From positions 4,216 through 68,215 of the IMG/VR virus record IMGVR_UViG_3300047169_000010: a stretch of DNA of 64,000 bases, one strand, 5' to 3'. The notes beneath the pieces were generated by a model. That model did no database searches. It was not told where the DNA came from and worked only from the letters and a program-made list of their open reading frames with translations. A program made the position numbers and the translations under genes. This document shows, in pieces, positions 4,454-61,760 of this stretch; position 1 is the first letter of the stretch, and the number at the start of each line of letters is the position of its first letter. Origin of the DNA: a virus (taxonomy: Duplodnaviria > Caudoviricetes).

Positions 4454-4633
4454 GTGGTGAAACCTGTAGTGAAGTTATCGGAGGAGGACGGCAACGTATT
4501 CAGCATCATTGGGCGTTGTGCCAGAGCTTTGAAACCTAGCGGCAAAGCTGATGAGTTTAGACAGAAAGCAATGTCGGCTGGCAGCTATGACGAAGTGTTG
4601 CGCCTTGCAATGGAATACTGTGAGGTTGAGTAA
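4454..4633 (+). CDS. Small conserved phage protein (59 aa, not in the ORF track)
   Basis: GTG start; translates to VVKPVVKLSEEDGNVFSIIGRCARALK...AMSAGSYDEVLRLAMEYCEVE, resembling a DGN(A/V)F..IG..GDY-type small phage protein pattern. Confidence 0.55.
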   Translation: MVKPVVKLSEEDGNVFSIIGRCARALKPSGKADEFRQKAMSAGSYDEVLRLAMEYCEVE

Positions 4634-11234: not shown

Positions 11235-12137
11235 ATGGCAGGAAAGAAGAATGCACCCACATCAAATCCCGGAACGAGCATGGTGAAGTGGGAAGAGGAG
11301 ATGGAGAAGCGTAGTCAGATAGCGGCTGCTGCAACGGCGGCAGCGAGCGGCACCTTTGTCGGGCTGAAGGCTGGCGTCATCTCCATTGACAAGGTGCCCG
11401 TCAAGGGTAACGAGATTGAGGCCGTGGTGCTCAGCCATTGCTTTGAAAACGCTCTGTATCCCGGCAAGTATGATCCTGAAAATCCGACGTCACCCATTTG
11501 TTTTGCGTTCGGCGTGGCTACACCCGACATGACGGCGGATCAAGTGTCCAAGTTGCAGGACACCATGGTGCCGCACGAGATGTCTGTTGAGCCGCAAGGT
11601 CACAAAGACAAAGCAGACGCCGGAAAACCCGGAGGCAAGTGTTCAACATGCTGGGCGAACCAGTGGGCCAGTGCTGAGGAGGGGCGCGGCAAGGCGTGTA
11701 AGAATGTTCGGCGGTTGGGTTTGATTGCTGGTGATGATGACAGTATCAAGTCTGCCGACGCTATCGCTGCGGAAAAAGTGTATTACCTCAAGACTCCTGT
11801 GATGAGCGGCAAGAACTGGGACAGCTACGTGAAGGACGTGGCCAAAACGTTGAAGCGCCCGCCGTTGGGTGTGGTGACCAAGATCGGAATTCAACGCGAC
11901 GAAAAAGCTCAGTTCCTGGTGATCTTTGACGTTGTGAAGAAGATCGACAGCGCCGAACAGTTTGAGGCTATTATTGCGAAGGCGGACGACGTAACCGCGC
12001 AGATCTCCTTCCCATACCAACCACCGAGTGACGACGCCAAGACTGCCGCGCAGCCTGCACGGGGCAGCAACGCGGGGGCGCGCAAGTTTGCAGGCAAGCC
12101 CGCGCCAACGCCTACACGGGGCGCGGGCAGGCGGTAA
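11235..12137 (+). CDS. Putative single-stranded DNA-binding/recombination protein
   Basis: PICFAFG...C..CWANQWAS..GRGKACKNVRRL pattern; position upstream of the DNA polymerase; AAGGAG RBS. Confidence 0.6.
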   Translation: MAGKKNAPTSNPGTSMVKWEEEMEKRSQIAAAATAAASGTFVGLKAGVISIDKVPVKGNEIEAVVLSHCFENALYPGKYDPENPTSPICFAFGVATPDMTADQVSKLQDTMVPHEMSVEPQGHKDKADAGKPGGKCSTCWANQWASAEEGRGKACKNVRRLGLIAGDDDSIKSADAIAAEKVYYLKTPVMSGKNWDSYVKDVAKTLKRPPLGVVTKIGIQRDEKAQFLVIFDVVKKIDSAEQFEAIIAKADDVTAQISFPYQPPSDDAKTAAQPARGSNAGARKFAGKPAPTPTRGAGRR

Positions 12138-12143
12138 ACGGTG

Positions 12144-12174
12144 CGCTGTAGGCGTATTGGCAGCGCCTACAGCG
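12144..12174. terminator. Hairpin after the SSB-like gene
   Basis: CGCTGTAGGCG/CGCCTACAGCG 11-bp inverted repeat; no clear U-tract. Confidence 0.45.
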
Positions 12175-12197
12175 GCCTAAACCTAAAGGAGACCAAG

Positions 12198-17353: not shown

Positions 17354-17550
17354 AGCAATACGTGGTAACAGAAGAAGAGTTTATGTCGCTAATTGAAGGA
17401 TTGAAACTAGAACAGTTTCATTCTGCCAGCGACCCCAATAGGTTTCTAGACGCAACTGGTAAACCGGATGTTCCACGTCTACATAAAGCATTCCATCATC
17501 GTGTAATCGTATGGATGCAAAGCATGGGTTTCAAGGGGTACCGTGAATAA
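17350..17550 (+). CDS. Hypothetical protein
   Basis: ATG 17350 overlaps the VRR-NUC stop. Confidence 0.4.
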   Translation: MKQYVVTEEEFMSLIEGLKLEQFHSASDPNRFLDATGKPDVPRLHKAFHHRVIVWMQSMGFKGYRE

Positions 17551-19024
17551 GATATCAGGACAAGCATGGAATCCGCACCAGTATCAGCGCAAGGCGATGA
17601 AGTGGCTGCTTGAACATGCCTGCGCCGCGCTGTGGCTTGATCCAGGACTGGGGAAGACGTCTATTGTGATGGGCGCGTTCAAGGTTCTGAAGAAAAAGGG
17701 GCTGGTGACGAGGATGTTGGTGCTGGCCCCGCTGCGTCCGTGCTTTCTTGTATGGCCAGCTGAGTTGCAGAAGTGGACGGACTTCCACGGTTTGAAGATG
17801 ATCGTGCTGCACGGCCCCGACAAGGAAAAACTTCTGCACGAAGAAGCTGACATCTACGTCATGAACTACGAAGGGTTGGATTGGCTTACCGGCACGCGCA
17901 AGTTCGGTGAGAAGAGCCGGCTCCAGCAATGGATGGCAGCCGGTAGCAATCAGGTGATGTTGACTGTAGACGAAGTTACAAAGCTCAAATCGACGAACAG
18001 CAAACGCTTCAAGCTGTTGAAACCGTGGCTGGGCAAGTTCAGCCGCCGCTGGACGCTAACCGGCACCTGTGCCCCCAACGGTTACATGGATCTATTTGGA
18101 CAAATATATGTCGCGGACGAAGGTGTTTCGTTGGGTCGTTATATCAGCCACTACCGGCGTTCCTATTTTGACGCGGGCGGGTATGGAAACTATACTTTCA
18201 CGCTCAGAGAAGGAGCCGACAAAGAAATTCAAGAAAAGATAAAACCGCTTGTGCTGCGCATGGACGCCGACGATTATCTTGACCTACCCAAGGTGCTGGT
18301 CAACAAGGTATACGTTGAGCTGCCCGGGGAGGCGAGACGCATCTACGACGACCTTGAAAGCGAGATGTTCAGCGTTCTACAGGACGCCAAGGTGATTACC
18401 GCGTTGGGCGCGGCGGCGGCCAGCATCAAATGCAGGCAAGTGGCCAACGGCGGAATCTACCTGCAACCCGAGGAAGACCCCGGCGTGGTGCAACGCAAGG
18501 ACACACGTGAGTGGCGAGACCTGCACACAGCCAAGACTGACGCCGTGTTAGAGCTTATTGAAGGCGTACAGGGTAAGCCCGTATTCATCACATACGACTT
18601 CGCGCACGACCTTGCGCGGCTACGCGCCGTGCTGGGGAAGGATGTACCAGTGCTAGGCGGCAAAGGCAGCGGCCCATCAGGTATAAAGAATGACAAGATG
18701 CTTGAGGACGCGTGGAATAAGAATCTATTGCCCGTGCTGCTCGGCCACCCGATGAGTGTGGGTCACGGTTTGAACCTGCAATTGAGTGATTGCCAAGACA
18801 TGATCATCCACAGCGACACGTGGGATCACGAGCTTTATGACCAGATGATCCGCCGCATACGGCGGCAGGGCAATAAGTTCTCGTTCATGCGGCTTCATCA
18901 CATCATTGCTGTGGACACAGTTGACGAGGCACTGTACGCCAGCCACGGGTACAAGGGTGGAATCCAGAAGGCTCTCATGGACGCGTTCAAAAAGAGGCGC
19001 AAAATTCCTGTTTCACGCTTGTAA
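17543..19024 (+). CDS. SNF2-family helicase
   Basis: DPGLGKT (Walker A), VDEVT (Walker B), LTGT, GHGLNLQ, QMIRRIRRQG. Confidence 0.92.
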   Translation: MNKISGQAWNPHQYQRKAMKWLLEHACAALWLDPGLGKTSIVMGAFKVLKKKGLVTRMLVLAPLRPCFLVWPAELQKWTDFHGLKMIVLHGPDKEKLLHEEADIYVMNYEGLDWLTGTRKFGEKSRLQQWMAAGSNQVMLTVDEVTKLKSTNSKRFKLLKPWLGKFSRRWTLTGTCAPNGYMDLFGQIYVADEGVSLGRYISHYRRSYFDAGGYGNYTFTLREGADKEIQEKIKPLVLRMDADDYLDLPKVLVNKVYVELPGEARRIYDDLESEMFSVLQDAKVITALGAAAASIKCRQVANGGIYLQPEEDPGVVQRKDTREWRDLHTAKTDAVLELIEGVQGKPVFITYDFAHDLARLRAVLGKDVPVLGGKGSGPSGIKNDKMLEDAWNKNLLPVLLGHPMSVGHGLNLQLSDCQDMIIHSDTWDHELYDQMIRRIRRQGNKFSFMRLHHIIAVDTVDEALYASHGYKGGIQKALMDAFKKRRKIPVSRL

Positions 19025-19047
19025 TTCCGCCAGCGCGCAATTACAAT
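19019..19047 (+). promoter_or_regulatory. Sigma70-type promoter
   Basis: TTGTAA-17 nt-TACAAT, upstream of a GAGGG RBS for ORF 19088. Confidence 0.65.
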
Positions 19048-19087: not shown

Positions 19088-19834
19088 ATGTCAAAGAAGC
19101 GAGGGAACCACCCACCACCAGAACCTGAACCAGCGCCACTAAGTCTGCTTGAAACGCTCCTGCTACAGGACGTTCCACGCGATTTTTTGCTGGCAAGCGG
19201 ACAGCACCGTGAAGACGGTGTGTTGGCACAGCTTTCTAGATATGAGCTTCAAGAGCTGGTTCCGCGCACCGCGCAATTGGATGTACCCATGCCCAAAGAG
19301 AACATTCTTAGCTTGGCACGGTGGGTTGTAGAACGAGCTTTGCTGGTGAAACACGGTGTTACAGACGAGAAGTTGGCGGAATACGATGAGAAGGCTGCCA
19401 GATGGACAGCCTTCACCTACACAAACCACGCGGCGCGCGTCGCCGCTCAAACCAAAGAAAAAGCTCAAAGGAGAGCGAATACAGTGGCAGACGAACAGGT
19501 AGCGGCAGTGAAGACGGCAGCAAAGAAAGTTGCGAAGAAGGTTGCAGAGAAGAAGGCGGCGAAGGTCGCAACGAAGAAGGCAGAGAAGGAAGCTGGCCCG
19601 TCCGTGTACGAGACCATGGTGGTCGCAACCAAGAAGGAAGTCCGCGAAGGCAGCTTCTTCGATCAGGTGGTGAAGTTCGCGCAGAACCCGATCAAGTTGG
19701 AGACGCTGATCCAGAAGCTGGTGAAGGAAGTCGGCCCGTCGCTGCGCAGCAGCAAGGACCCCGAGCATGTGGTGCGCACCCGCACACGGGATGCGTTCAG
19801 CCGGTTGGGCTTCTTGAAGGTTGCCAAGGGGTAA
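19088..19834 (+). CDS. Lys/Ala-rich putative DNA-binding protein; paralog of the 58090 gene
   Basis: AKKVAKKVAEKKAAK linker; the C-terminal ~70 aa align with the C-terminus of 58090-58566. Confidence 0.7.
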   Translation: MSKKRGNHPPPEPEPAPLSLLETLLLQDVPRDFLLASGQHREDGVLAQLSRYELQELVPRTAQLDVPMPKENILSLARWVVERALLVKHGVTDEKLAEYDEKAARWTAFTYTNHAARVAAQTKEKAQRRANTVADEQVAAVKTAAKKVAKKVAEKKAAKVATKKAEKEAGPSVYETMVVATKKEVREGSFFDQVVKFAQNPIKLETLIQKLVKEVGPSLRSSKDPEHVVRTRTRDAFSRLGFLKVAKG

Positions 19835-20097
19835 CGTTCTGGCTGTCGTGTATAATCTAGCCAGCCCAGTATGGGCTGGCTAGGACTTTCTGTAAGGAGG
19901 TTCACCGTGACGGCATACATGCGCATCAAGATGCTGCTGGAAAGCGAAGGATGGAAGCGCGGAACGTGGGGCAGCGGTGTCGTGCAGTTCACAAAAGGAA
20001 AGCGATACATAAACATCCAAGGCGCTGGCTATTGGCGTCTCTACAAAGGTGGTAGCCACATCAACGGAAAAGGAATTGACACACTGAGGGCGGCGTT

Positions 20098-20910
20098 ATG
20101 ATGGAAATCTACATACCAACACGAATGGCGATGGCCCGGTTCCATACCGCGCCGTTGCTCAAGGCGGCGGGCGTAAAGTTCACACTGGTGGTTGACAATG
20201 AGGAACAACGGGCGGCGGCGCATAAGCTGGGCTACAAGCGAACAATGCTCACGCCCAACGTGGCCGACCTAGCGGCTAAGCGTACGGCCATCAACCAGCA
20301 GCACGGCAAAGGCTTCTACATCTCCATGGATGACAACATCCAGGAATTTCAGGCCGTCATGCCGAAGTACATGAAACAGAAAGACCTTGACACCGGCAAC
20401 ACGGCGTTCGCTTGGCGCAAGGTGTTCAATCAACGGATTGCGCCCGCGGACATGGTGGACGCGCTGGGCGATCTGTCTGAAATGTGCGTCCACCATGGCA
20501 CTGTATACGGCGGCGTGGCTACGATGGAAAACCCTTTCTTTCGCGGCGGTGAGCGCTACGCTTATCGCCGGTTTGTGAAGGGGAAGATATTCGTCATGGA
20601 GGCCGACCCGCAACTTGAATTCAAGTACAGTATGGTCGAAGACTCCTACATGACGGCGCAAGTGCTGGCCATGTACGGCAGCGTGGTCGTGGACAAGCGA
20701 CTGTTTTACCGGGCGCGCTGGTACGAGCCCGGAGGCCATGGAACGCGAGAGCAGCGCGAGGCAAACGGTTTGATGGATCACCTGCGCAGTATCTGCGCTG
20801 AGTATCCAGGCTTGGTTGGCGTGGGCAAGGGCGGCAACACGGCCTTGCGCGTGCTGCGAACGAGTGAGAACGGAATCAATAAGTGGCGAGAGGAGAACGG
20901 GTATCTATGA
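20098..20910 (+). CDS. TAGT/GREB1-like glycosyltransferase 1
   Basis: IYIPTR N-terminus, AKR..I, SMDDN (DxD-like), VEDSYMT.Q.L..YG, PGGHG, EYPGLV. Confidence 0.75.
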   Translation: MMEIYIPTRMAMARFHTAPLLKAAGVKFTLVVDNEEQRAAAHKLGYKRTMLTPNVADLAAKRTAINQQHGKGFYISMDDNIQEFQAVMPKYMKQKDLDTGNTAFAWRKVFNQRIAPADMVDALGDLSEMCVHHGTVYGGVATMENPFFRGGERYAYRRFVKGKIFVMEADPQLEFKYSMVEDSYMTAQVLAMYGSVVVDKRLFYRARWYEPGGHGTREQREANGLMDHLRSICAEYPGLVGVGKGGNTALRVLRTSENGINKWREENGYL

Positions 20911-21761
20911 AAGACAATCGGTTGGTGATTTATCACGGCAATTGCATGGACGGCTTCACGGCGGCGTGGGCTGTATGGCTAAAGCACCCGGACGCTGAGT
21001 TCGTAGCGGGTGTGTACGGCGAACCGCCGCCGGACTGCACGGGGCGCGACGTGATTCTGGTTGACTTCAGCTACAAGCGACCGGTGATGGAGCAGATCAT
21101 TGCCGTGGCTAAGTCGGTGTTGGTGCTTGACCATCACAAGACTGCACAAGCAGACCTTGCCGGGCTGGACACAGTTTTTGAATTGCACGATAAAGTGAAT
21201 GTGATCTTCGACATGGACAAGTCCGGCGCGCGACTGGCGTGGGAGCACTTCCATCCATTTATGGGTTTGCCGTTGTTCGTGCAGATGGTGGAGGATCGTG
21301 ACCTCTGGAAGTTCTCACTTCCTGATTGCCGCGCACTTAGCGCTTACTTCTTCAGCTTTGAGTATGACTTCATGACGTGGAACGGGTTTCTCAACGATAT
21401 GGAAGCCGTTGCGACGCGTACGCGATGCATCGCAGCCGGCGAAGCCATTGAGCGCAAACATCACAAGGACGTCGCCGAGTTAGTGACTAAGACACGGCAC
21501 GTACGATACTTCGTGCATGGTGCGCTGGGTCCGATTCCGTGTGCGAACCTGCCTTACACCTTAGCCAGTGACGCTGCCAACCTGATGGCTGAGGATGCAC
21601 CGTTCGCCGCCACTTACTACATGGATGCGCGCGGCGATTACGTATTCAGTCTGCGCAGCCGCGAAGACGGTGCGGACGTCAGCGCTGTCGCAGCAAAGTA
21701 CGGCGGTGGCGGTCATGCGCACGCTGCCGGGTTCCGCATCAAAAGTCTGGAGGAGCTGTGA
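20907..21761 (+). CDS. DHH/DHHA1 phosphoesterase
   Basis: YHGNCMDG, VDFS, LDHH, DRDLW, GGGGHAHAAGF. Confidence 0.9.
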   Translation: MKDNRLVIYHGNCMDGFTAAWAVWLKHPDAEFVAGVYGEPPPDCTGRDVILVDFSYKRPVMEQIIAVAKSVLVLDHHKTAQADLAGLDTVFELHDKVNVIFDMDKSGARLAWEHFHPFMGLPLFVQMVEDRDLWKFSLPDCRALSAYFFSFEYDFMTWNGFLNDMEAVATRTRCIAAGEAIERKHHKDVAELVTKTRHVRYFVHGALGPIPCANLPYTLASDAANLMAEDAPFAATYYMDARGDYVFSLRSREDGADVSAVAAKYGGGGHAHAAGFRIKSLEEL

Positions 21762-22525
21762 AAATTTACATCCCAACCTTGGCGCGTACAGACAATCAGA
21801 TTACACTGCACAACCTTCCTAATTTAGTTTTGGAGGATGTGGTGCTGGTGGTCGACAAGAAAGATCGTATACCGTTTGGCGGTGCGTCTACTATACTGAC
21901 TTGCCCTGCACACGGAATCGGCAAGGTGCGCCAGTGGATCATTGACAATCACGATGTGAAGAAGTACGGTAGGTCATTGCTGATGTTGGACGACGACCTG
22001 TCATTCGCCGTGCGGCGCAAGGATGATCCCACCAAGTTTCTACCTTCTACAGCTGCTGACGTTATAGCGATGTTGAACGAAACAGCTGATATGGCGCAAG
22101 AGTACGCGCATGGTGGAATTCTTAGTCGCGAAGGAGGAAATCGTGTTCTTAGCAACTACAAAGAAAATAGCAGAAATCTGCGCGCGCTATTTTACGATGT
22201 GACCATAATGCGAAAACTTGACATTCGCTTCGATAGAATTCCCGTCATGGAAGATTTCGATGTCGCGCTTCAGTTACTGCGTGCTGGATACCAGAGTATA
22301 ACCGTGGCCCGGTATGTGCAGGATCAGATTCGCAGCAACGCACCGGGCGGCTGTAGCACCTACCGCACCCGCGAAGTGCAGCGGAAGGGCGCGCTGGGTT
22401 TGCAGAAGTTGCATCCGCAGTTTGTGAAGACCGTTGAGAAGACCACCAAAACCGCCTGGAACGGCGAAACCCGCACCGACGTCATGGTGCAATGGAAGAA
22501 GGCATATGAGTCAAGCCAACGATAA
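21758..22525 (+). CDS. TAGT/GREB1-like glycosyltransferase 2
   Basis: KIYIPT.AR, RQWI, MLDDD, MEDFDVALQLLRAGY, SNAPGGCSTYRT, HPQFVK. Confidence 0.85.
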   Translation: MKIYIPTLARTDNQITLHNLPNLVLEDVVLVVDKKDRIPFGGASTILTCPAHGIGKVRQWIIDNHDVKKYGRSLLMLDDDLSFAVRRKDDPTKFLPSTAADVIAMLNETADMAQEYAHGGILSREGGNRVLSNYKENSRNLRALFYDVTIMRKLDIRFDRIPVMEDFDVALQLLRAGYQSITVARYVQDQIRSNAPGGCSTYRTREVQRKGALGLQKLHPQFVKTVEKTTKTAWNGETRTDVMVQWKKAYESSQR

Positions 22526-22647
22526 GAAAGTGACTTTGAAGCAGGTTGAGAAAGCGATTGAGAAACACATGTATTCTTGCTGTACGTACGCCAGTCAAGC
22601 GGAGTTGCTCAGGGACAGAGTTCTTAGCGATCTTAGGCGGGTGAAAG

Positions 22648-23625
22648 ATGAATAAGCCTTACATCCAAGAACCGCCGTTTTCTGTTCAGGTTGAGCTTGT
22701 TCAGGGCTGCAACCTGATGTGTGGATTCTGTGGTATCAACGGAATTCGTGAGAAAGCTGGCAACTACGACTTCGCCAACATTGAAACAATCCACGCCACA
22801 GCGTCGCAGATGGCCGAGGCTGGCTGGACGAGCATGATCATCTTAGCCATGCACGGCGAGCCGAGTTTGCACCCACGACTTGCTGACTGCATTGCCACGC
22901 TGCGCAGATACCTACCTAAGAACGATATTACACTTGTCAGTAACGGCAGTGGATTCAATCGTCCTGGAAAGCAGAAGCAACTGGTTCAGGACGTGTTTGA
23001 TGCTGGTCTCACCAAGCTAGCCCTTGACGACTACGAGCACAGCGGCTACATTCCAAAGTTGCTGACGGCTCTGGGAGACGACGTACCGTTCAAGGTGCTG
23101 CACTACCCGGCCGACGGGTTGGACACCAGCCCGTGGCGGCGCTGGCCTGCTAAAAAGCAGGCGATTGTGGTGCTGGCGGACTTGCAGAAAAACGCGGCCA
23201 ACCATGTAGGCTTGGCGCAGCTCAGCAACCACTGTGGGGCCGCTGGGCCGCTTACTGAAAAACTTGCTGGGCAAAGGTGCGCCAAAGTTTTTCGGGAGTT
23301 TAGCGTGCGCTGGGACGGCGGCGTGGCGTGCTGTTGTCAAGACTGGAGAGGCACCGTAAAGGTAGGTAACGTCAACGACACGTCAATCGACAGACTGTGG
23401 AACAATAGCGTTATGCAGGCACTCCGGCGCAAACTGTACCACGGCGAAAGAGATTTCGGTGCTTGTCTAGGCTGTGACTATCGTAGTACACGCGTCGGGC
23501 TGCTACCCGATAAGATGGGTAAGGACAGTCTGCCGCGTGCCGATAAGAAGGACATGACTGTGTTGGCTGCGGCAAGCGCCGGTGATTCTTTGACGCAGAT
23601 TGTATTGCGTCCGTGGGAGAAGTGA
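22648..23625 (+). CDS. Radical SAM enzyme with SPASM/Twitch domain
   Basis: CNLMCGFC (CxxxCxxC), HGEP, and C-terminal C...WDG...CCCQDW...GNV...LWN...C..C. Confidence 0.9.
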   Translation: MNKPYIQEPPFSVQVELVQGCNLMCGFCGINGIREKAGNYDFANIETIHATASQMAEAGWTSMIILAMHGEPSLHPRLADCIATLRRYLPKNDITLVSNGSGFNRPGKQKQLVQDVFDAGLTKLALDDYEHSGYIPKLLTALGDDVPFKVLHYPADGLDTSPWRRWPAKKQAIVVLADLQKNAANHVGLAQLSNHCGAAGPLTEKLAGQRCAKVFREFSVRWDGGVACCCQDWRGTVKVGNVNDTSIDRLWNNSVMQALRRKLYHGERDFGACLGCDYRSTRVGLLPDKMGKDSLPRADKKDMTVLAAASAGDSLTQIVLRPWEK

Positions 23626-23626
23626 A

Positions 23627-24034
23627 ATGTTTCTTTCTGACGAAGCAGTGCAACGCTTCATGGCAAAGATAAAGTACGATGGTGACTGTTGGATATGGCA
23701 GGGTGCTACCAACGGTCCCGGTAACTATGGACACATGGGTGTTCCTGGTCGTAAGACTATGACAACTCACCGTGTGTCTTATCTACACTTTATCGGGCCA
23801 ATACCAGACGGTCTGGATGTTCTTCATAGTTGCGACAGAACACTTTGCGTAAACCCAGACCATCTATTTACAGGTACAGATGAGGACAATAAGAAAGATA
23901 TGGAACGCAAAGGTCGTCAGCGAGATCTGACCAAGCGAACGGCGACTGGACAATTTGCGGCTTACTTGAAACCTCTTCCTATCGTTGACGATAGGAATGA
24001 CAACCCGGATTATGCAGCATGGAAGGACATCTAG
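23627..24034 (+). CDS. HNH (His-Cys box/HNH_3-type) endonuclease
   Basis: CWIWQG...YG...HRVSY..FIGPIP.GL.VLHSCD..LCVNPDHL..GT..DN..DM..KGR. Confidence 0.88.
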   Translation: MFLSDEAVQRFMAKIKYDGDCWIWQGATNGPGNYGHMGVPGRKTMTTHRVSYLHFIGPIPDGLDVLHSCDRTLCVNPDHLFTGTDEDNKKDMERKGRQRDLTKRTATGQFAAYLKPLPIVDDRNDNPDYAAWKDI

Positions 24035-24035
24035 T

Positions 24036-24575
24036 ATGGCGCGAGCAACGCTAAAGAAAAAGAGTAAAGCAGGCAAGGAGTATGCTTGTGATAGATGCAC
24101 CAACAAGATTGTTGCGGGCGAACAGTATTACATGTGGAGCTTCCGCTATGGCGGCACACACTTCCAGCACGCCAGCCACGGTATGCCCAAGTTCAGCCAA
24201 CTGACGCAAAGCAAAATGAGTGGCGCGTACAGAGCCATCGAAGACTGTGAAGCTACACTCCAAAGCTGCGGCAGCGCCAGTGAAGTCGCGGATGCACTTG
24301 GCGCGTGCATTGAAGAGATCGGCAACGTTCGTGACGAGTATCAGGAAGCTATTGACGCCATGGTTTCGCCCGATGGCGTGGTTGGTCAGAATTGTCAAGA
24401 GGCGATTGACAACCTGGAATCGTTCATCAGTGAGTTGGAAGAGGCACAGCAAGAAGCTGAGAATGCTGAAGAACCTGACGATGATGACGACCAAGATGCA
24501 AAGGCTGCACTTGAAACAGCGCTTGCAGACTGCATCAGCAAGGCAGAAGAAGCACTGGGCAGCGCCAGTTTCTAA
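24036..24575 (+). CDS. Hypothetical protein (basic CxxC N-terminus, acidic helical C-terminus)
   Basis: ATG 24036 directly follows the HNH stop. Confidence 0.55.
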   Translation: MARATLKKKSKAGKEYACDRCTNKIVAGEQYYMWSFRYGGTHFQHASHGMPKFSQLTQSKMSGAYRAIEDCEATLQSCGSASEVADALGACIEEIGNVRDEYQEAIDAMVSPDGVVGQNCQEAIDNLESFISELEEAQQEAENAEEPDDDDDQDAKAALETALADCISKAEEALGSASF

Positions 24576-24595
24576 GAACTGAAAGCGAGGGAAGT

Positions 24596-25453
24596 ATGAA
24601 AAGACTTGAAGATTTGTTCGCCTTTATGAAGGAACGGTATTCTATCACACAGAAGAAGAATGCCGGTGAACCGAAGCCGTGGACATCAGACGAAGTTCTG
24701 CAAAAATATCGCTTTTGCAATATCAATCGCGAAGACGATACGGTCACACGGTGGATCGCCAAGAACTGGCGCAAGCCCAACGCCGCAGACCCACACCTAT
24801 GGTTCGCAATGGTGGTGGCTCGGTTTATCAACTGGCCAGATACTTTGGCGGAGATTGAATATCCGCACATAGACGTGTTTGAGAAGTGGGTACAGCTCAG
24901 GTTCGCGAAGTCTGTGCAGTACAGAGAAGTAAATGGGTTGAAGGTGTACGGCGGCGCGTACACCATCAGCACCAACGGGCGCGCCATGGTGAAGTGGAAA
25001 TACCTTGTTGAACATGTGTTCAAACCGCTGTGGGAAGCGCATGAAGAAATTGAATCCGTGCTGGCGACGCCACGATTGCATCTTGCGGCTCTACACGAAG
25101 AACTGTGTAGATTCCAAGGGTTGGGCAGTTTCATGTCTGCACAAGTTATCGCTGATCTGAAATACGTACAGCTGAAGAAAGCGCCCGACTGGTGGACGTT
25201 CGCGGCCAGCGGCCCTGGAAGTAGACGTGGGCTGAATATAGTATTCGGCGCAGACATGAACCGTAGCTGGCGTCCCGGCGAATGGGATGAAAACTTCATG
25301 GAACTGTATGGAAGAGTGGCGCTGATGTGGGCGTCAGAGGGATTTCCGCGCATTCATGCACAAGACGTTCAGAACAGTTTGTGCGAGTTTTCGAAGTACT
25401 ACAAGGTGCTGACGGGCGCGGGTAGACCACGACAATTGTACACAGGAGTATGA
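24596..25453 (+). CDS. 5-hmdU DNA kinase helical-domain family protein (aGPT-Pplase1-like)
   Basis: F..ER..I...K..G.P.PWT.D.VLQKYRFCNI.REDD.VT.WI signature; GPGSRRGL; VQNSLCEFSKY. No Walker A motif is visible. Confidence 0.85.
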   Translation: MKRLEDLFAFMKERYSITQKKNAGEPKPWTSDEVLQKYRFCNINREDDTVTRWIAKNWRKPNAADPHLWFAMVVARFINWPDTLAEIEYPHIDVFEKWVQLRFAKSVQYREVNGLKVYGGAYTISTNGRAMVKWKYLVEHVFKPLWEAHEEIESVLATPRLHLAALHEELCRFQGLGSFMSAQVIADLKYVQLKKAPDWWTFAASGPGSRRGLNIVFGADMNRSWRPGEWDENFMELYGRVALMWASEGFPRIHAQDVQNSLCEFSKYYKVLTGAGRPRQLYTGV

Positions 25454-25528
25454 TAATGCAATTCATACTGGTAGAAGAATCGTTAGTGCTAGAACCGTGC
25501 CGCACACCATGATCAAGGAGTCCTAAGA

Positions 25529-25744
25529 ATGTACGTCCTCAACAAGAAGAAAGACAAACTGTACGCCGTGAACTATGACACTAAGGCCGTCGTAGAATTG
25601 GGAATCATATTGAGACTTGAGCGCACCGCCATGGGTGTTATGACCACCGGCGGTCGCAAGGTTGACCACAGAATTGTGAGCGTATATCTCACCAATCGCA
25701 CACGACTAAGAATACCAATCGCTTTGTTCTACGAGGAGGAGTAA
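25529..25744 (+). CDS. Hypothetical protein
   Basis: AAGGAG RBS; abuts the next gene. Confidence 0.45.
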   Translation: MYVLNKKKDKLYAVNYDTKAVVELGIILRLERTAMGVMTTGGRKVDHRIVSVYLTNRTRLRIPIALFYEEE

Positions 25745-26766
25745 TGCACGTAATCACAGCAGTTGACGTAAATGACGCATTGGCACAGGGACTTGAATAT
25801 ATTTTCACGTACGGCAAAGAAGAACCCAGCCGCAACGGGCCGGTGCTGGTAGCACCCACGCCGGTGACCACCAAGTATCTGTACCCGCACCGACGCGTGC
25901 TATTCAGCCCCACGCGAGATGCTAACCCGGTATTTCATTGTCTAGAGGCGCTCTGGATGCTCGCAGGCCACAACGACATCGCGTTCCCCAAGAAGTTCAA
26001 CAGCAAGTTCGGCGCTTACAGTGACGACGGCGTAACCCAACGTGGCGCGTACGGCTACAGGTGGCGGCAGTGGTTCGGGTATGATCAACTCAAGGTTATC
26101 ATCGACGAGTTGAAGACCAACTCTGCCAGTCGTCGGTGTGTGCTTGCCATGTGGGATGGAGGACAGCTGTCGTACTGGGATAACGACACAACTCGTGGCG
26201 AACCACATCCGGGAGACCTTCTTGCCACGACAGTTGACAAACCATGCAATACTCACATCTACTTCCGCGTTCGCGACGGTGTGCTTGATATGACAGTGTG
26301 CTGCCGTAGCAACGACATTCTGTGGGGTGCGTACGGGGCCAACGCCGTCCACATGAGCTTCCTGTTGGAGTACATGGCCACCGCCATCGGTGTCAGTATG
26401 GGTGTGTATTATCAGGTCAGCAACAACTACCACCTCTACACTGATGTCCTGGGTCGTGAGAAGGGAGAACAGATTATAGAGGAATGCCACGGGGCGCTGT
26501 TAGTCGTTGAGAATGTGCCGCTTGTGGCAAACCCAGAAACCTTTGACAAAGAACTTCAGCGGTTCATGCAAAACCCCGGCGCGGCGTTTGACTATGAAAA
26601 TGAGTTCCTGGGCCGCGTTGGTATGCCGATGTATCTTGCGTGGGAAGCCAAGTCGACGTCTATCACGGATGCGCTAGCGCACGCAGCTTACATCACTGAC
26701 ACAGCTTGGAGATTAGCATGTACCGAATGGTTAGAAAGACTTGAGGTAAGACGAAGTGGAAGATAG
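25744..26766 (+). CDS. Thymidylate synthase-fold dUMP hydroxymethylase (5-hmdU synthase)
   Basis: SRNGPV, DANPVFH.LEALWMLAG, GAYGYRW, SRR, KPCN (catalytic Cys), RSND and WGAYGAN. Asn at the specificity position indicates dUMP rather than dCMP. Confidence 0.85.
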   Translation: MHVITAVDVNDALAQGLEYIFTYGKEEPSRNGPVLVAPTPVTTKYLYPHRRVLFSPTRDANPVFHCLEALWMLAGHNDIAFPKKFNSKFGAYSDDGVTQRGAYGYRWRQWFGYDQLKVIIDELKTNSASRRCVLAMWDGGQLSYWDNDTTRGEPHPGDLLATTVDKPCNTHIYFRVRDGVLDMTVCCRSNDILWGAYGANAVHMSFLLEYMATAIGVSMGVYYQVSNNYHLYTDVLGREKGEQIIEECHGALLVVENVPLVANPETFDKELQRFMQNPGAAFDYENEFLGRVGMPMYLAWEAKSTSITDALAHAAYITDTAWRLACTEWLERLEVRRSGR

Positions 26767-27322
26767 AACCGTTCTAAAGAAGAAGCTGCAATTCATGCTT
26801 GAGGGCAGCGCGGTACAGCGCTTCCACACACGAGCACCGCTGCGACCCAATACCGTGGGGCACCATAGCAACGGCGTTGCTCTAATCTGCTACATGATCT
26901 GGTGGGGTGACAACGCCTGTCTACCACGCCCACATCTGATACTGGCAGCTTGTACGCACGATCTTGCTGAGCAAGTAACTAGTGACGTTAGCGCGCCCGC
27001 CAAGCGACTGCTCGACATTCGCGATATTCTACACCTTTTAGAGAACGAAAAGTTGGCTGACCATGGCATGGACTTCGATCGCTATCTAACAGAGGAAGAG
27101 CTGGCGGCGTTGCGTATGGCCGACCTGTTTGACGCCATGCTGCTGTGCTGCCAGGAAGTTGCGGCGGGTAACAAGATGATGATACTGCCGTATAGACGGA
27201 TGCGTGAATGGGTGCGAGAAGTCTACACTACGCTCACACCGACCATGGCTGAACTCTTTATGGCCATACAAGAAATCATGCAGGAATACAGGGAGGAACC
27301 GACTTATGACTGTTTCAGCTAA
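26756..27322 (+). CDS. HD-domain 5'-deoxynucleotidase/dNTPase (YfbR-like)
   Basis: VQRFH...TVGHHS...THDLAE...D...P.K...MAD..D. Confidence 0.8.
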   Translation: MEDRTVLKKKLQFMLEGSAVQRFHTRAPLRPNTVGHHSNGVALICYMIWWGDNACLPRPHLILAACTHDLAEQVTSDVSAPAKRLLDIRDILHLLENEKLADHGMDFDRYLTEEELAALRMADLFDAMLLCCQEVAAGNKMMILPYRRMREWVREVYTTLTPTMAELFMAIQEIMQEYREEPTYDCFS

Positions 27323-56575: not shown

Positions 56576-56684
<109 letters not shown>

Positions 56685-56694: not shown

Positions 56695-57208
56695 CATGGC
56701 GGTGATAAGTGCCGGGTATTCTGTTGCTAGGAACCCGGCGAACCCCGACCGCTGTTAGGCGGCCAACGGAAGAGCAGAACGCTCGGGCCGGGTAAAGGCA
56801 AGAACGTTGCTACGCTTCGTACTGTCACTTTGGGTGGCAGTTGTTTGTCAGGCTCTCGTTACGGTGAGCACCCAGTTCCGGCACGGTCCATGAATTGTTG
56901 AACACCCCGTCGAAGCCGTGACACGCCCACAAAGAAATACACTGTTCTTACTAACCGCTATCTACTGACGTAGACCGCGTGCGCGGTGCGCAGTGTACTT
57001 CTTGGTGGACGTGGCGGGAGTCGAACCCGCGTCCGCGACGTCCTCCAATTCACTTCATACTGTGCGTACTGCATGGGTGGCCCGCTTTGGGTTCTGTGTC
57101 CTGCGGGAGTCCCACTCGCGCAGTTGACAGAATCCCGGCGCTGCCACCCAACTTACGGGGCGACTAACGGCTTCGCCTCCACCACCCGGCGTACATAGCA
57201 CCGGGGCT
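56695..57208 (-). ncRNA. ssrA: Circularly permuted (two-piece) tmRNA gene
   Basis: The acceptor piece ends GCGGGTTCGACTCCCGC-CACGTCC-ACCA at 57003. After a 74-nt intervening segment, the coding piece starts GGGCGTG-TCACGGCTTCGACGGGG at 56928. The acceptor stem has G3-U70; helix 2 is CAATTCA/TGAATTG; the tag ORF ends LAA-stop. Outer ends are approximate. Confidence 0.9.
56755..56838 (-). other. tmRNA tag reading frame ATQSDSTKRSNVLAFTRPERSALPLAA*
   Basis: Resume codon GCC after ACAACT; 27 codons, then TAA. Confidence 0.85.
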
Positions 57209-57444
57209 GTACCCAGTATACATATTGGGCTGTGTGACGGCTAGCTCTTCTTGAAGAACGCAGATATGAACGCGATGGGTGCAACAATGGGTGTGATTAT
57301 AACGGCACCCACCTTGAGCGTGGTGTGGTCAAAGAAATCGCACTGCTCGGTTGATGTGAACATGTCACGGACCACATGACCAGTATGCGTGAACGGGTTT
57401 ACCATTGGCAGAACCTCCTGTGCACTCTTAGTGTATACGCAACG

Positions 57445-57744
57445 CTAGTAGTCGTCCCACTCAGGAATGGCCACCGTCTTACCCTTCATGGTGTGGGTAC
57501 AGTCGTCGAGGAACTGCATCTGTCCGTCTTTCACAAGCGAATGGCACAGATGCTCTGTCGGGTTGCTGCGACCCACGTTGTAGAGTACTGAGGGCGCGAG
57601 CGTCGGCGAATCAAAGCTGCCGTTCCACTGCCAACCGGCTCCGTTCTCCATTTTCTTACCGTTGACTGCCACCATATGATTGGTGTCGCATCCTGGGCAG
57701 TGCCAGACGACGTAGTTCGGTTCTATTTCGTGGAACTTGGCCAT
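57445..57744 (-). CDS. DUF6527-like Cys/His protein
   Basis: CPGC..H.V......W.WNGS.D.PTL.PSVL....CHS.V.DG..QFL.DCTH. Confidence 0.7.
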   Translation of the reverse strand: MAKFHEIEPNYVVWHCPGCDTNHMVAVNGKKMENGAGWQWNGSFDSPTLAPSVLYNVGRSNPTEHLCHSLVKDGQMQFLDDCTHTMKGKTVAIPEWDDY

Positions 57745-57940
57745 TGGGTGTGCCTCCTGCTGGGAAGTATAGCTTCTTCAGAACCTCCGATGGGCAAGAA
57801 CTCAGGCTTCGGCTCCTCCGTCATGATGATCGCCAAATTCAAAATCTTCGGAGTTCGAGTCGAGTCGGCCCGAACGAGGTGCCCATGGGGGTGAGTTTGG
57901 TTGTAAGAGGGTGGGGTACCAGCAATCGCATGGCCAGACG

Positions 57941-57980
57941 CCTGTGCAAAACCTGTGCAAACCCTGTGCAAAAGTGCAAA
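57941..57980 (+). repeat. Tandem (C)TGTGCAAA repeats upstream of the promoter
   Basis: CTGTGCAAA three times plus GTGCAAA. Confidence 0.7.
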
Positions 57981-58009
57981 TATATTTTGCCGTAAACGTA
58001 ATTTTGTGC

Positions 58010-58037
58010 TTGCAATTGCGGAGCGGTATGGTACTAT
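58010..58037 (+). promoter_or_regulatory. Sigma70-type promoter of the GA/TC-free gene
   Basis: TTGCAA-16 nt-TACTAT with TGG extended -10 and an AT-rich upstream tract. Confidence 0.7.
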
Positions 58038-58089
58038 TACCACAGTAGGCAGTAAGGTAATACACACTGTAACTAAGGCAGGTAACACA

Positions 58090-58566
58090 ATGGCAACTGT
58101 AGCAGCACAGCCCACCACGCAAGCCAAGCCCACCACGCAAGCCAAGCCCACCACGCAAGCCAAGCCCAGCAAAGCCGCACAGCGCGTAGCAGCGGCCAAA
58201 GCCATGGCCAAGGGCATTACCACACAAGCGCTTGCAGCACAGCCCACCACGCCTACGGTGCCCGCGCCCAAAGCCACTACGGCTTTGGTGGTGGCTACCA
58301 CGCAAGCGGCGCAAGTGGTAAACACTGCGTATTACCAAACCGTTGTTACCAGCGTTGGCGCGGCCAAGGTTGGCAAGCCGGGCACGTTTTTTGGCAACTT
58401 GCAAAACATGGCACAGCAGCCCATTACGTTGCAAGCGCTTATTGCACAGGCCGTGGCTGGTAACAAATTTACCAGCAAAAAAAGCCATGCCTTTGTGGCC
58501 ACGGTGCGTACGCGCCACGCGCTTACGCGGTTGGGGTACTTAGTTGCAGTACCCGCAAAAGCGTAA
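58090..58566 (+). CDS. Basic 158-aa protein with no Asp or Glu, encoded without any GA/TC dinucleotide
   Basis: ATG 58090 follows AAGGCAGGT; PTTQAK tandem repeat (18 nt, three copies); the C-terminal domain aligns with ORF 19088. Confidence 0.85.
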   Translation: MATVAAQPTTQAKPTTQAKPTTQAKPSKAAQRVAAAKAMAKGITTQALAAQPTTPTVPAPKATTALVVATTQAAQVVNTAYYQTVVTSVGAAKVGKPGTFFGNLQNMAQQPITLQALIAQAVAGNKFTSKKSHAFVATVRTRHALTRLGYLVAVPAKA

Positions 58567-58585
58567 CCCAAACGGTTACACAACA

Positions 58586-58620
58586 CAAAGGCCACTGCCC
58601 AACCGGGGCAGTGGCCTTTG
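58586..58620. terminator. Bidirectional terminator-like hairpin
   Basis: CAAAGGCCACTGCCC/GGGCAGTGGCCTTTG 15-bp perfect stem between convergent genes. Confidence 0.75.
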
Positions 58621-58700
58621 GTGCGTTGGTACCCATTTGTTTGGGGTGGGGCCGCGCACGCGCCCGCGCCATGCCATGCCCCGTCAAACCGAAACGACGC

Positions 58701-58896
58701 TCACGTCGCTGCGATGTGACTTCCTACGCCAAACGAAAGCCGCATCGCAGTGACCTGACATCCACACGACGTTCACGTCGCAGCGATACGAGGATGTCAC
58801 GTCGCTGCGATGTGAAAACCAAACTGCACACCACGGGCGCGTCGCATCGCTGCGACGTGAAAGCCGAAACGACGAACTCACATCGCAGCGACACGA
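58701..58896. repeat. Cluster of five 19-bp palindromic sites TCAC(A/G)TCGC(A/T)GCGA(T/C)GTGA
   Basis: Copies at 58701, 58773, 58797, 58842 and 58878; further copies at 59382, 59733 and 60357. Confidence 0.85.
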
Positions 58897-58977
58897 AAGC
58901 CGAAATCTACTTTAGAAGCCGAGGCGCTAAGGCCTCGGCTCCCAACGGCCTAAAGCCGAAAACGATCGCCGTCTGGG

Positions 58978-59283
58978 TTACCGGGCAATGGGTTCTTCCT
59001 CTTCATCCCACAATGTTTGCATAAAATCAACAAACACCATGCGAACCTCTTCCGGCGCGCTGTCCAGGTAACTTGTGCCGCCTGCTGGCACCGCCTTGCA
59101 TACGCCTGCGCGATGCTGAGCGGGCACAGTTGCCAGCCAAGTTTCTGCGGCGGCGAACTCTTCAGGGGTTGCGCTTGCGATGTCCTCAGGACCGCGCCCT
59201 TTGATGTCCATGTCTTGCCTGCCGGTTGCACGATTGTTGTCGGCTACAAATGCCTGTAGCGCCTGCGTGAGTAGTGGGTACAT
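58978..59283 (-). CDS. Small acidic hypothetical protein
   Basis: ATG 59283 follows AAGGCGG; acidic C-terminus DEEEE. Confidence 0.55.
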   Translation of the reverse strand: MYPLLTQALQAFVADNNRATGRQDMDIKGRGPEDIASATPEEFAAAETWLATVPAQHRAGVCKAVPAGGTSYLDSAPEEVRMVFVDFMQTLWDEEEEPIAR

Positions 59284-59421
59284 TTGATATGCCGCCTTTT
59301 GGGTGTGCCGTAGTTGCATATATAAAGGCTAACCAAATCGCGCCGCTGACAGCCAAATTTATTTTAGTCAAAGCCGAAACGTCACATCGTTGCGATTAGA
59401 CCTACACGAAAGTCGAAAACC

Positions 59422-59691
59422 TCACCTCAGCAGCTTGGGATCCGTGATCTCAGTAAACCGTTTATGGCCCACGTCTCGCGTCACGGGTATGTACACGCCG
59501 TTTATGACGGGTGACTCACGCACGGCCTGCGCCAGCGGGCCATAACCCTCGCCGCTCGGTGACTCAACAGCGGCGCGGAACTCGTCCTTGGTAAAGGCTC
59601 GTCCGCAGAAGCCTGTGAGTAGAACGTCCTTGTCCATGGCAACCAACTGTCGCCGCATTTGAATTTGCTTTGCCGCCTTTTTCAACGCCAT
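59422..59691 (-). CDS. Hypothetical protein
   Basis: GAGGTG RBS before ATG 59691. Confidence 0.55.
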   Translation of the reverse strand: MALKKAAKQIQMRRQLVAMDKDVLLTGFCGRAFTKDEFRAAVESPSGEGYGPLAQAVRESPVINGVYIPVTRDVGHKRFTEITDPKLLR

Positions 59692-59713
59692 GTGATACAC
59701 CTCGCTTGCGTTC

Positions 59714-59751
59714 CACTATAACAGTAGGGAGGTCACGTCGCTGCGATTTGA
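59714..59751 (-). promoter_or_regulatory. Extended -10 promoter (TGTTATAGT) with a 19-bp palindrome over the -35 position
   Basis: The same arrangement is repeated at 60339-60375. Confidence 0.6.
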
Positions 59752-59799
59752 CCACCTATAAGACGAAAAGAGCCGAGAATCACCTCGGCTCCTCAGGTC

Positions 59800-60150
59800 T
59801 TACGCGAGCGCTGCGTGGCGATTGCCGCCGAAGTCGCGATAGCTGCGAAATATACGGTTGCCGTCGTAATCCCAGCCAAGCTCGTTCAACTTGGACACAA
59901 TCTTGTTGCGCGCAGCAATCCAATCGCGCAACGGTAGCGCGTTCGCATAGCTGGGGCCGAGTGCGTCAAGTTCTTTTCCCAGTGCCAATACTTCACGTGT
60001 TTGTCGCCTGAGCCTCTTGGGCGCGACAGCCTTTGCAAGCTGCTTGGCAGTGTAGTCGCCCTCGGGCAGGCTGATCTTGCCAGCGCGGTCGGCTGCAATG
60101 GTTGCTGCTACGGTGGAGGCGGAGACGGTGGTTGCGATTTTCTTTGCCAT
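59800..60150 (-). CDS. Hypothetical protein
   Basis: GAGGGT RBS; 116 aa. Confidence 0.55.
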   Translation of the reverse strand: MAKKIATTVSASTVAATIAADRAGKISLPEGDYTAKQLAKAVAPKRLRRQTREVLALGKELDALGPSYANALPLRDWIAARNKIVSKLNELGWDYDGNRIFRSYRDFGGNRHAALA

Positions 60151-60660
60151 GATATTACCCTCGTGTTACCGGTTTGGACTGCCCTACTGCCTTACTGAAA
60201 CTATCTACGCGCTCAACAGAAAGAACGCAGGCATTATTTGCTGAAAATCCTCCTGGGGCAGCTTTAGCCTGCCGCCTATATAAAGGCTACGGCCCGCCAC
60301 GCATGACTGACAAGCCGAGGGTCACGGCTCTTCCAACCACTATAACAGCAGGGAGGTCACGTCGCTGCGATGTGACTTCCTACGCCAAACGAAAGCCGAG
60401 GCGCTAAGGCCTCGGCTCCCACGCTACTCAGCAAATTGCTTTCTTGTATAGCCCAGCATCAAGTCCCTGAAGTTTGCCACCCTGACCCTCTCCAACACGT
60501 TGGCCGCCTCACCATCCCCTGACTTCAACATGTGCTGTTGTGCGTTGAAAAGAATTCCCCATCCGTCGCGTATCGTTGATTTCATTGTACTGCCTCCATG
60601 GGCGGCATTGCCGCTACCTAAAGGCTACGGCCCGCGCCACATGAATGACAATAGCCGAAA

Positions 60661-61203
60661 TCACGCTTTCGCATCCTCGGCGTCCTGAACCCTCTGCTCT
60701 ATCTCCTCAACGGCGGCCATAGCCAAGAGCTCGGCTACTCGGGCCTTCTTTTCGTCGGGAGTCAAAGCCGAAATCTCAAGAGGTCCGCCCCCGGCTCCCG
60801 TCACAGCCGTCGCAGTGGCGAGCTTCCCCTCCACGCGATCTATCAGCAACTCAAAGCTCCGCATGTCGCCGTCCAACGCCTGCTTGAGCAGGTTAGCCGC
60901 CAACGCGTCGGCCTGCGTGAAGTTACGAGCCTTGTACGTCTTGCTCGGGCCTCGGTATGGTTCTTGAAGAAACTGCTTCATCTTAGAGGACAGAGGCTTT
61001 GGATTTCTTAGGGCCATCGGTCCTCCGTTCCCCGGTTGAAATCCTGCCTTGCGCCTGATTTCGTCTATTCCCGGGTCCTCGCCCTTCGGTCTGAAGAATC
61101 CTTTTGGTTTTGGTTTTTGGAGCTCTAAACTCGGGTCTTCCCGCGCTGGCAGGTGTTTATCGCCGGAAACTTCACTTTCTATCGTGACAGGAAAGCTGCT
61201 CAT
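60661..61203 (-). CDS. terS: Terminase small subunit (DUF5681-like)
   Basis: AGFQPGNGGP; ADALAANLLKQALDGDMRSFELLIDRVEGK; TGAGGGPL. Start set at ATG 61203. Confidence 0.7.
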   Translation of the reverse strand: MSSFPVTIESEVSGDKHLPAREDPSLELQKPKPKGFFRPKGEDPGIDEIRRKAGFQPGNGGPMALRNPKPLSSKMKQFLQEPYRGPSKTYKARNFTQADALAANLLKQALDGDMRSFELLIDRVEGKLATATAVTGAGGGPLEISALTPDEKKARVAELLAMAAVEEIEQRVQDAEDAKA

Positions 61204-61484: not shown

Positions 61485-61760
61485 GTGCATTACCCATACT
61501 TGGCAAAACGCCACAACCTCAACCCGCAGAGTATGTTAGATGAGTTACCCACACTACCCACGGCAAAACGGCCTGTTGGCGCTATTTATATACGGGGCAC
61601 CATTTTGGTGCTGCTACGGCTTACCACCCACTCTATATATATATACATAGTATGGGTATATATGGGTAGTGAGGGTAACAATGTGTTATGAGCAACATAG
61701 ACGCCCACACTACCCCGCCAAACGATGATCCTACCCACACTATGAAACAGTCAAAACGCG
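61485..61760. repeat. Origin-like region: TACCCA(C/T)AC iterons around a (TA)n core
   Basis: Copies near 61491, 61546, 61555 and 61732; inverted TATGGGTA copies near 61651-61668; TATATATATATA at about 61634-61645. Confidence 0.55.

Follow-up and report, generated by a model that had tools for sequence, protein, structure and literature searches.

A GA/TC-free island encoding an acid-free protein, and a paralogue upstream of a thymidine hypermodification operon, in a tailed phage from moss metagenomes

Why should a phage write one small gene in DNA that lacks the dinucleotides GA and TC, and forgo aspartate and glutamate in its product, when a relative of that gene stands in ordinary code elsewhere in the same genome? 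The gene in question (the short copy) lies at 58090–58566 of a 64,000 nt stretch of tailed-phage DNA, referred to here as the window, and its relative (the long copy) lies directly upstream of an operon for thymidine hypermodification of the 5-hydroxymethyldeoxyuridine (5-hmdU) type. The window comprises bases 4216–68215 of IMG/VR virus record IMGVR_UViG_3300047169_000010, a 68,215 bp record classed as linear and estimated to be 71 % complete. Terminase, portal and tail genes occupy its minus strand, and the replication genes share the plus strand with the modification operon. The sequencing runs that contain the window's stretch are moss metagenomes. A search of the full record found exactly two copies of the family.

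Phages are known to gain protection for their DNA from hypermodified thymine; how a phage reads, regulates and starts up such DNA is the question addressed here. Our overall reading, to which we assign a probability of roughly 0.55, is that the two proteins are ancient paralogues sharing a basic DNA-binding domain tied to hypermodified DNA, and that the short copy is encoded in an island kept free of a TC-context mark.

One domain in two subfamilies

An earlier sequence-only reading of this DNA had the coordinates and frame of the short gene right, and recognized that its product contains neither Asp nor Glu. Given that these residues make up 10.2 % of the window's reference genes, the chance of finding none in 158 aa is about 4e-8, and the net charge of the protein is +17. 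The two short alignments on which the reading had based its claim of paralogy recount exactly (11/25 and 8/12 identities, with replacements of D to G, E to Q and D to H), and comparison of the whole proteins bears the claim out. BLASTP aligns them with 28/72 identities (39 %, E 1e-11) across a shared C-terminal domain of about 75 aa, and the Smith–Waterman score of 135 compares with 44.0 +/- 6.9 in 2000 shuffles (z 13.3, or 21.3 for the C-terminal domains alone). The long copy's domain carries 15 Lys and Arg against nine acidic residues, and all nine of these positions (9/9) are non-acidic in the short copy.

Alignment-based AlphaFold models also agree with the winged-helix suggestion of the earlier reading. 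Both C-terminal domains are predicted to run strand, helix, short strand, helix, helix, strand, with a predicted local distance difference test score (pLDDT) of 76–89 in the short copy (residues 83–156) and 65–81 in the long copy (174–246). On this prediction both fall in the winged helix-turn-helix class, which is defined by a three-helix core with a helix-turn-helix and a small beta-sheet wing, and they share the same best structural matches. Foldseek returned nothing from the PDB at E <= 0.001 for either model, and the models indicate a fold class rather than a family. Homology and a common fold of the two domains are almost certain.

The remainder of each protein is built differently. Residues 1–64 of the short copy form a disordered tail (pLDDT <50), and the long copy consists of a confidently predicted helical N-terminal domain (20–130), with generic helical-bundle structural matches only, followed by a disordered Ala/Lys-rich linker (135–171) and the shared domain. 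The earlier description of an Ala/Lys-rich linker in both proteins is thus apt for the long copy, where it is classic; the tail of the short copy is instead rich in Ala, Thr, Gln and Pro, with about seven Lys. Short tandem peptide repeats occur in these tails, three of TQAKPT in the window (58102–58168) and four to five of KPTS in a related contig, L004 (approximately 1990–2040). As the repeats differ among relatives, the tail appears to evolve by repeat turnover.

Neither protein matched Pfam, PHROGs or PDB sequences, and the same was true of 22 family members and their profile, Pfam giving no match to the members even at E 5. Searches of 50,697 phage records by tblastn with both paralogues were likewise empty, and the ESM Atlas offered only weak leads (DUF6958, 0.80; DUF3489, 0.75) that hmmscan did not confirm. 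Membership of the HU/TF1 type II DNA-binding family (PF00216) was rejected, there being no Pfam match and a different predicted fold. We also considered that the domain might be an adaptor that binds protein or peptide in the manner of a recognition element for ribosomally synthesized and post-translationally modified peptides (RiPPs), the long copy recruiting or scaffolding the modification enzymes and the short copy acting as a free competitor or partner. Such PqqD-like elements are winged helix-turn-helix domains. The window's domain has no RiPP genes nearby, runs in the order given above, has no PqqD (PF05402) match and is neighboured by helicase and DNA-modification genes; its strongly basic charge, and fusions to nucleases in relatives, favour nucleic acid binding. 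An adaptor role is very unlikely.

The family itself is small. A profile search of 1.84 billion representatives recovered only 61 proteins, of 78–636 aa, in which the domain is nearly always C-terminal and the N-termini vary. Three of them, located on short metagenome contigs, are nuclease fusions: in P0018, PLDc_2 stands in front of a domain that shares 58 % identity with the short copy over 120 aa, and in P0037 and P0053 the domain precedes HNH and HNH_2, respectively. Within a maximum-likelihood tree built from 70 domains, the clade that contains the short copy has 25 representatives, is supported at 99 by the Shimodaira–Hasegawa-like approximate likelihood-ratio test and bears the signature FTSKK..H.FVA.VR.RHA.TR.GYL. 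The long copy groups with P0011–P0015, under the signature LRS.KDPE.VVR.R.RDAF.RLGFL. A tree constrained to unite the two lineages of the window is worse by 49.8 log-likelihood units, and their sister relationship is rejected by the approximately unbiased (AU) test (P 0.005).

Acid-free or nearly acid-free proteins are scattered over at least three sub-clades of the short-type clade, beside members with 4–9 acidic residues, which implies that such residues either disappeared on several occasions or were regained. The six acidic positions that are invariant in long-type orthologues are mostly non-acidic in short-type members of normal composition too. Homologues of this last kind, of about 102–110 aa, are found at 4610–4942 of L008, 1018–1344 of L009 and 575–898 of L027. 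They directly follow purB (adenylosuccinate lyase) on the bacterial-looking contigs L008 and L009, and occur in an uncultured Granulicella metagenome-assembled genome, the only genome recovered when bacterial genomes were scanned with an alignment; a scan with P0008 recovered nothing. The existence of bacterial homologues of normal composition means that the short subfamily extends to cellular genomes and was low in acidic residues to begin with. It hints at a cellular origin of the short subfamily and at an acidobacterial host range for these moss and peat phages. On this phylogeny the two copies of the window are ancient paralogues from separate subfamilies, not a gene and its recoded twin.

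This result bears directly on the proposal of the sequence-only reading that one function exists in two encodings, which these data do not support. In its fullest form, the acid-free copy would be made from the sole readable part of the fully modified incoming genome and would license host RNA polymerase to transcribe the rest, the normal copy taking over later. The domain and predicted fold are common to both proteins, as that model expects. However, the copies come from different old subfamilies, the long copy includes an N-terminal domain that the short one lacks, cellular homologues of normal composition exist for the short type, and nothing in our analysis ties the domain to RNA polymerase. 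Further evidence on this model, of both signs, comes from the island and from relatives of the phage, as described below; weighing all of it, we consider the model doubtful.

The GA/TC-free island

A 663 bp stretch (58021–58684) without GA or TC encloses the short gene and is preceded by another 84 bp without both; the island's sole GA, at 58021–58022, falls in the spacer of the promoter-like site, and 58023–58683 is free of both steps. In the window as a whole the GA/TC frequency is 0.112 and the next-longest free stretch is 148 bp. Only GA/TC is absent from the island, CA/TG and the remaining steps occurring at normal or higher frequency. The protein sequence does not account for the absence: the same acid-free protein re-encoded with phage codon usage would contain 32.7 +/- 4.4 GA/TC, against 0 observed, and the minimum reached by synonymous resampling was 18 in 5000 trials.

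The ban spans the promoter-like site, the ribosome-binding site, the gene and the hairpin that follows it. Because GA and TC are reverse complements, and because the untranscribed flanks are included, the constraint appears to act on duplex DNA and not on mRNA, and an mRNA-level explanation such as escape from RNase is unlikely. With GAN codons banned, neither Asp nor Glu can be encoded, and we hold it very probable that the protein is acid-free only as a side effect of a ban selected at the level of DNA.

Both the consensus −35 element (TTGACA) and the consensus Shine–Dalgarno sequence (AGGAGG) contain GA, so a GA-free unit must use other signals. The islands of the related contigs L004–L006 have in common the extended −10-like motifs TGCTATAT, and the form TGnTAnnAT is present in the window and in L004–L006. 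The earlier reading had credited each copy with its own sigma70-type promoter. By consensus matching this stands for the long copy, whereas the candidate of the short copy fell below the threshold of the scan and was recognized by eye (Table 1). Directly 5′ of it are tandem copies of CCTGTGCAAAA, exact or near-exact, which could be an UP-like, bent or binding element.

Three RNA-library contigs, all 100 % identical to the window, cover 58121–58564 and nothing else in the 4.3 kb stretch 56700–61000, all of which is covered by a DNA run from the same habitat. The two metatranscriptome runs, X5 and X6, gave identical figures and are probably one data set. This coverage fits a short-gene mRNA that is strongly transcribed or stable. 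It also counts in favour of the licensing model, as do the GA/TC-free state of the whole transcription unit and its use of extended −10-like and other GA-free signals.

Relatives of the short protein were traced to DNA on one IMG/VR contig (L003) and ten metagenome contigs. Four of these, L003–L006, carry GA/TC-free islands of 940 to approximately 1200 bp around the gene, with two exceptions at most in each (in L003, one TC in the first 1040 bases), and their proteins are 44–79 % identical to the short copy. Contig L007 is partly depleted of GA/TC, and L008–L013 are of normal composition. L003 comes from a close relative of the window's phage (78 % identity in the large terminase subunit, TerL). 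Its gene differs from the short gene by 46 synonymous and 42 non-synonymous codons, the proteins being 79 % identical in the best aligned segment and identical at all but one of residues 96–154. Differences of this kind indicate a real gene under purifying selection, and a ban that is itself selected.

L003 (742–939) and L004 (2578–2772) have a second acid-free open reading frame of 64–65 aa inside their islands. It is 69 % identical between the two (E 2e-27), and so is more conserved than the adjacent winged-helix gene; it has no counterpart in the window and belongs to no known family. A link between the open reading frame at 58978–59319 of the window and one at 408–824 of L006 was marginal (E 0.001) and was not relied on. 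Relative to a flank shared with the window (57823–57936), the gene has opposite orientations in L003 (1–1143) and the window (57823–58684), which suggests that the island unit was inverted or re-inserted. Invertase-type repeats were sought at the island borders, and the sole candidate (57875–57902 and 58817–58844, 28 nt, 75 % complementarity) was too weak; contigs mapped to 56700–61000 revealed no joints, inversions or molecule ends.

Some other features of this part of the window may be recorded. A dense array of 19 bp palindrome-like sites of the TCACGTCGCTGCGATGTGA type begins 17 nt past the island (58701–58905); quite unlike the island, each site has many TC/GA steps. Between the packaging genes and the island lies a long uninterrupted CA repeat (56577–56683). 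Further GA/TC-free stretches, at 12041–12189 (148 bp, spanning a gene end and hairpin) and 61542–61632 (90 bp), are longer than chance allows, approximately 0.3 stretches of at least 84 bp being expected in the window. In DNA run X1, the contig holding the island (58139–58730) has a depth of 24.6, compared with 8.7, 17 and 11 for the contigs next to it, and the assembly is interrupted at the two island borders; a mixture of strains, or unequal sequencing of marked and unmarked DNA, could produce this pattern.

Table 1. Coordinates, in the window, of the two paralogues and associated features
Feature	Position	Strand	Details
Three tandem 11 bp copies of CCTGTGCAAAA	57941..57973	+	Directly 5′ of island promoter; one per helical turn
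GA/TC-depleted island	57937..58684		GA/TC-free gaps of 84 and 663 bp
Promoter-like site, short copy	58010..58037	+	TTGCAA, 16 nt spacer, extended −10 TGgTACTAT; read by eye, below the scan's 9/12 threshold
Ribosome-binding site, GA-free, AAGGCAGGT	58075..58083	+	7 nt 5′ of ATG
Short paralogue	58090..58566	+	158 aa, 0 Asp/Glu, 17 Lys+Arg; ATG at 58090, open reading frame ends at 58566; three TQAKPT repeats in tail
C-terminal winged-helix-like domain, short copy (predicted)	58333..58557	+	Residues 82–156; strand-helix-strand-helix-helix-strand
Terminator-like hairpin, short copy	58586..58620		Perfect 15 bp stem, 5 nt loop; closes the unit, inside the GA/TC-free stretch
SNF2-type helicase, conserved upstream neighbour of long copy	17543..19024	+	phrog_62, 4.4e-115
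Promoter-like site, long copy	19019..19047	+	TTGTAA-17-TACAAT, 9/12 consensus matches
Long paralogue	19088..19834	+	248 aa, normal composition, 32 Asp+Glu
C-terminal winged-helix-like domain, long copy (predicted)	19607..19825	+	Residues 174–246; element order as in short copy
Terminator-like hairpin after long copy	19856..19884	+	
5-hmdU thymidine hypermodification operon, conserved downstream neighbour	20098..27322	+	Pfam/PHROGs matches

The long copy and the modification module

The operon downstream of the long copy encodes two aGPT-Pplase/TAGT-like proteins, a DHH phosphoesterase, a radical SAM-SPASM enzyme, a 5-hmdU DNA kinase, a thymidylate-synthase-like dUMP hydroxymethylase and an HD hydrolase, with matches that include PF18723 (5-hmdU DNA kinase, 4.6e-43), phrog_842 (3.6e-50) and phrog_5131 (4.4e-102). 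The window thus holds together the 5-hmdU DNA kinase, the aGPT-Pplase/amino-acid:DNA transferase and the dUMP hydroxymethylase, the same defining genes as the known 5-hmdU hypermodification phages M6, ViI, PhiW-14 and SH-Ab 15599 (PMC5889632, PMC8989533, PMC6449724, PMC13458397). In the published accounts of those phages we found no description of a stretch purged of the target dinucleotide, of an acid-free gene or of a winged-helix gene at the head of the operon, and the literature searched contained no published description of an acid-free paralogue or a GA/TC-free island.

That the normal copy lies directly upstream of the modification operon had been pointed out in the earlier reading, and the position is kept in two other phage lineages. 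G002 (contig L014, 29.6 kb, 61 % complete, with approximately 47–50 % protein identity to the window) has SNF2, long-type, radical SAM, Pplase, kinase, thymidylate-synthase-like and HD genes. In G003 (47.4 kb, with terminal repeats and rated complete), PolA and SNF2 are followed by the long-type gene and then, after 98 bp, by Pplase1, Pplase2, radical SAM, kinase and thymidylate-synthase-like genes. The long type therefore stands between SNF2 and the hmdU genes in 3/3 records, the internal order of the operon varying slightly. The three phage lineages share only approximately 46–58 % protein identity, and their long-type proteins are conserved in the C-terminal domain alone.

G002 has no dinucleotide-free island in its 29.6 kb. 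G003 has one family member, of the long type, with no short copy and no such island, its longest GA/TC-free run being 123 bp. Co-occurrence of both copies with hmdU clusters, which the sequence-only reading had proposed as a check, does not hold for this complete relative, and a phage that manages with the long copy alone is a further point against the licensing model. The long copy is a standing component of the replication and modification module, and the short copy with its island is an accessory of a subset of these phages.

Possible roles of the island and the short protein

The predicted fold, the basic charge, the H1-like tails and the nuclease fusions together make it probable that the shared domain binds DNA, and a basic DNA-binding domain would be among the few protein types able to tolerate the loss of Asp and Glu. 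The long type probably acts on, or together with, hypermodified DNA, since it is kept between SNF2 and the hmdU genes in three diverged lineages. In a subset of these phages, the short type is encoded in a self-contained transcription unit, from extended −10-like promoter to hairpin, that selection keeps free of 5′-TC-3′ on both strands.

In M6, ViI and PhiW-14, 5-hmdU-derived hypermodification was located by restriction analysis at TG and/or TC (PMC6449724); in SH-Ab 15599 it is mainly at TG and less at TC (PMC13458397). The modification has been called ‘sequence-specific’ (PMC8989533, PMC5889632). DNA that contains 5′-TC-3′ on neither of its strands would offer no target at all to a TC-directed mark. 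From the island and from these other phages, we suggest that the ban, on balance, serves to keep the unit clear of the phage's own TC-context hypermodification. The unmarked unit would then be ordinary DNA within the infecting genome and could be expressed first, early expression of the short gene being part of the proposal.

Several points weigh against this interpretation. The choice of TC alone as the target context is drawn from phages in which only thymines in TG and/or TC contexts are converted and TG is often the main context. The absence of any Pfam, PHROGs, PDB-sequence or phage-record match deprives the domain of a functional anchor. The group used in the AU test was named after the tree had been seen, and a composition without Asp and Glu could itself pull acid-free sequences together. 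The RNA contigs show neither timing nor RNA ends, and their two source runs may be one. Lastly, the complete phage G003 has the same operon and long copy without island or short copy, so the island cannot be a general requirement of this chemistry.

The ban might instead be unrelated to the phage's own modification, and serve to avoid a restriction system, nicking enzyme or nuclease of the host or of a rival that acts at GA/TC-containing sites in the first minutes after infection, as in T7 and T5, whose leading regions are poor in sites. In these phages, gene 0.3 (T7) and the first-step-transfer region (T5) are small self-contained early units that have to function while the remaining genome is still unprotected or unavailable. 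The island, as proposed here, is likewise a self-contained early unit, and in several relatives its gene is at or near a contig end: the gene start is 55 bp from the end in L003 and within 460–660 bp in L004–L006, which would fit a leading genome end, and the island gene of the window's record is 5.3 kb from the record end. The strand symmetry of the ban, its extension into the flanks and the possession of the operon without an island by G003 are also in keeping with such evasion. However, a bare dinucleotide specificity is known for no nuclease, the contig ends may be assembly breaks, the contig depth changes at the island (24.6 vs 8.7–17), and in this record the island is found together with an hmdU-type operon. 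The leading regions of T7 and T5 avoid at most particular restriction sites, not a whole dinucleotide, and Ocr is extremely acidic where the short protein is acid-free. We judge evasion of a foreign nuclease improbable, and prefer avoidance of the phage's own mark.

A different possibility concerns the protein rather than the ban: the domain would recognize hypermodified thymine, and the short copy, made at once from unmarked DNA, would coat the modified genome so that modification-dependent nucleases fail to find it. Relatives with PLD or HNH fusions would be nucleases of that type with the same reader domain. According to one preprint, a sensor joined to a nuclease is the known build of modification-dependent (type IV) restriction enzymes, including those with winged-helix sensors and PLD or HNH effectors, and END nucleases that restrict the thymine-hypermodified phage M6 are described along with phage-encoded inhibitors of them (bioRxiv 10.1101/2025.03.31.646159). 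P0018, P0037 and P0053 show this same architecture, and the linkage of the long type to the hmdU operon in all three records would also suit a reader of the modification. Against this, the fused proteins are on short metagenome contigs with nothing to mark them as bacterial defence genes, and a shield would have to be in place ahead of any exposure of the modified DNA, so the genome would have to enter in steps. Neither window protein is itself a type IV restriction endonuclease, as both lack a nuclease domain, and no sequence relationship to known sensors was found. Shielding in this form seems to us unlikely.

Given the sensor-plus-nuclease build of the three relatives, recognition of modified thymine is nevertheless the hypothesis of greatest interest. 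The domain would read hypermodified thymine in the TC context, the long copy working with the enzymes on replicated DNA. The short copy, as the one protein that could be made from the sole unmarked transcription unit of the infecting genome, would act first on the marked DNA, opening it for transcription or hiding it from modification-dependent nucleases; the PLD and HNH fusions would be the matching weapons. We offer this tentatively, and each specific role of the short protein, whether letting marked DNA be transcribed or protecting it from such nucleases, is singly a long shot.

Partial parallels exist in other systems. TF1 of phage SPO1 is a phage-encoded DNA-binding protein that prefers hmU-containing DNA and has the HU fold. 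Like the long copy, it is small, basic, encoded by a phage and linked to a DNA chemistry that replaces thymine, a functional analogy only, as the window's proteins are predicted to be winged-helix-like and have no Pfam match. The immediate-early 1 gene of human cytomegalovirus, in which CpG suppression evades ZAP (PMC7498042), resembles the island in being one early viral gene purged of one dinucleotide in a genome that is otherwise not. There, however, sensing is at the RNA level, the host is eukaryotic and the suppression is partial, whereas the ban of the island is total and strand-symmetric, extends into non-coding flanks and costs the protein two amino acids.

Overall, our analysis describes a previously undescribed domain that accompanies the hmdU operon in three lineages and recurs in proteins fused to nucleases. 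The island offers a natural experiment, since a constraint on DNA has led to a protein that does without Asp and Glu, and the dinucleotide that such an island avoids could give a readout of a phage's modification context from sequence alone. If the domain does read modified thymine, it would be a useful reagent, and would account for phage start-up as well as for a class of defence nucleases.

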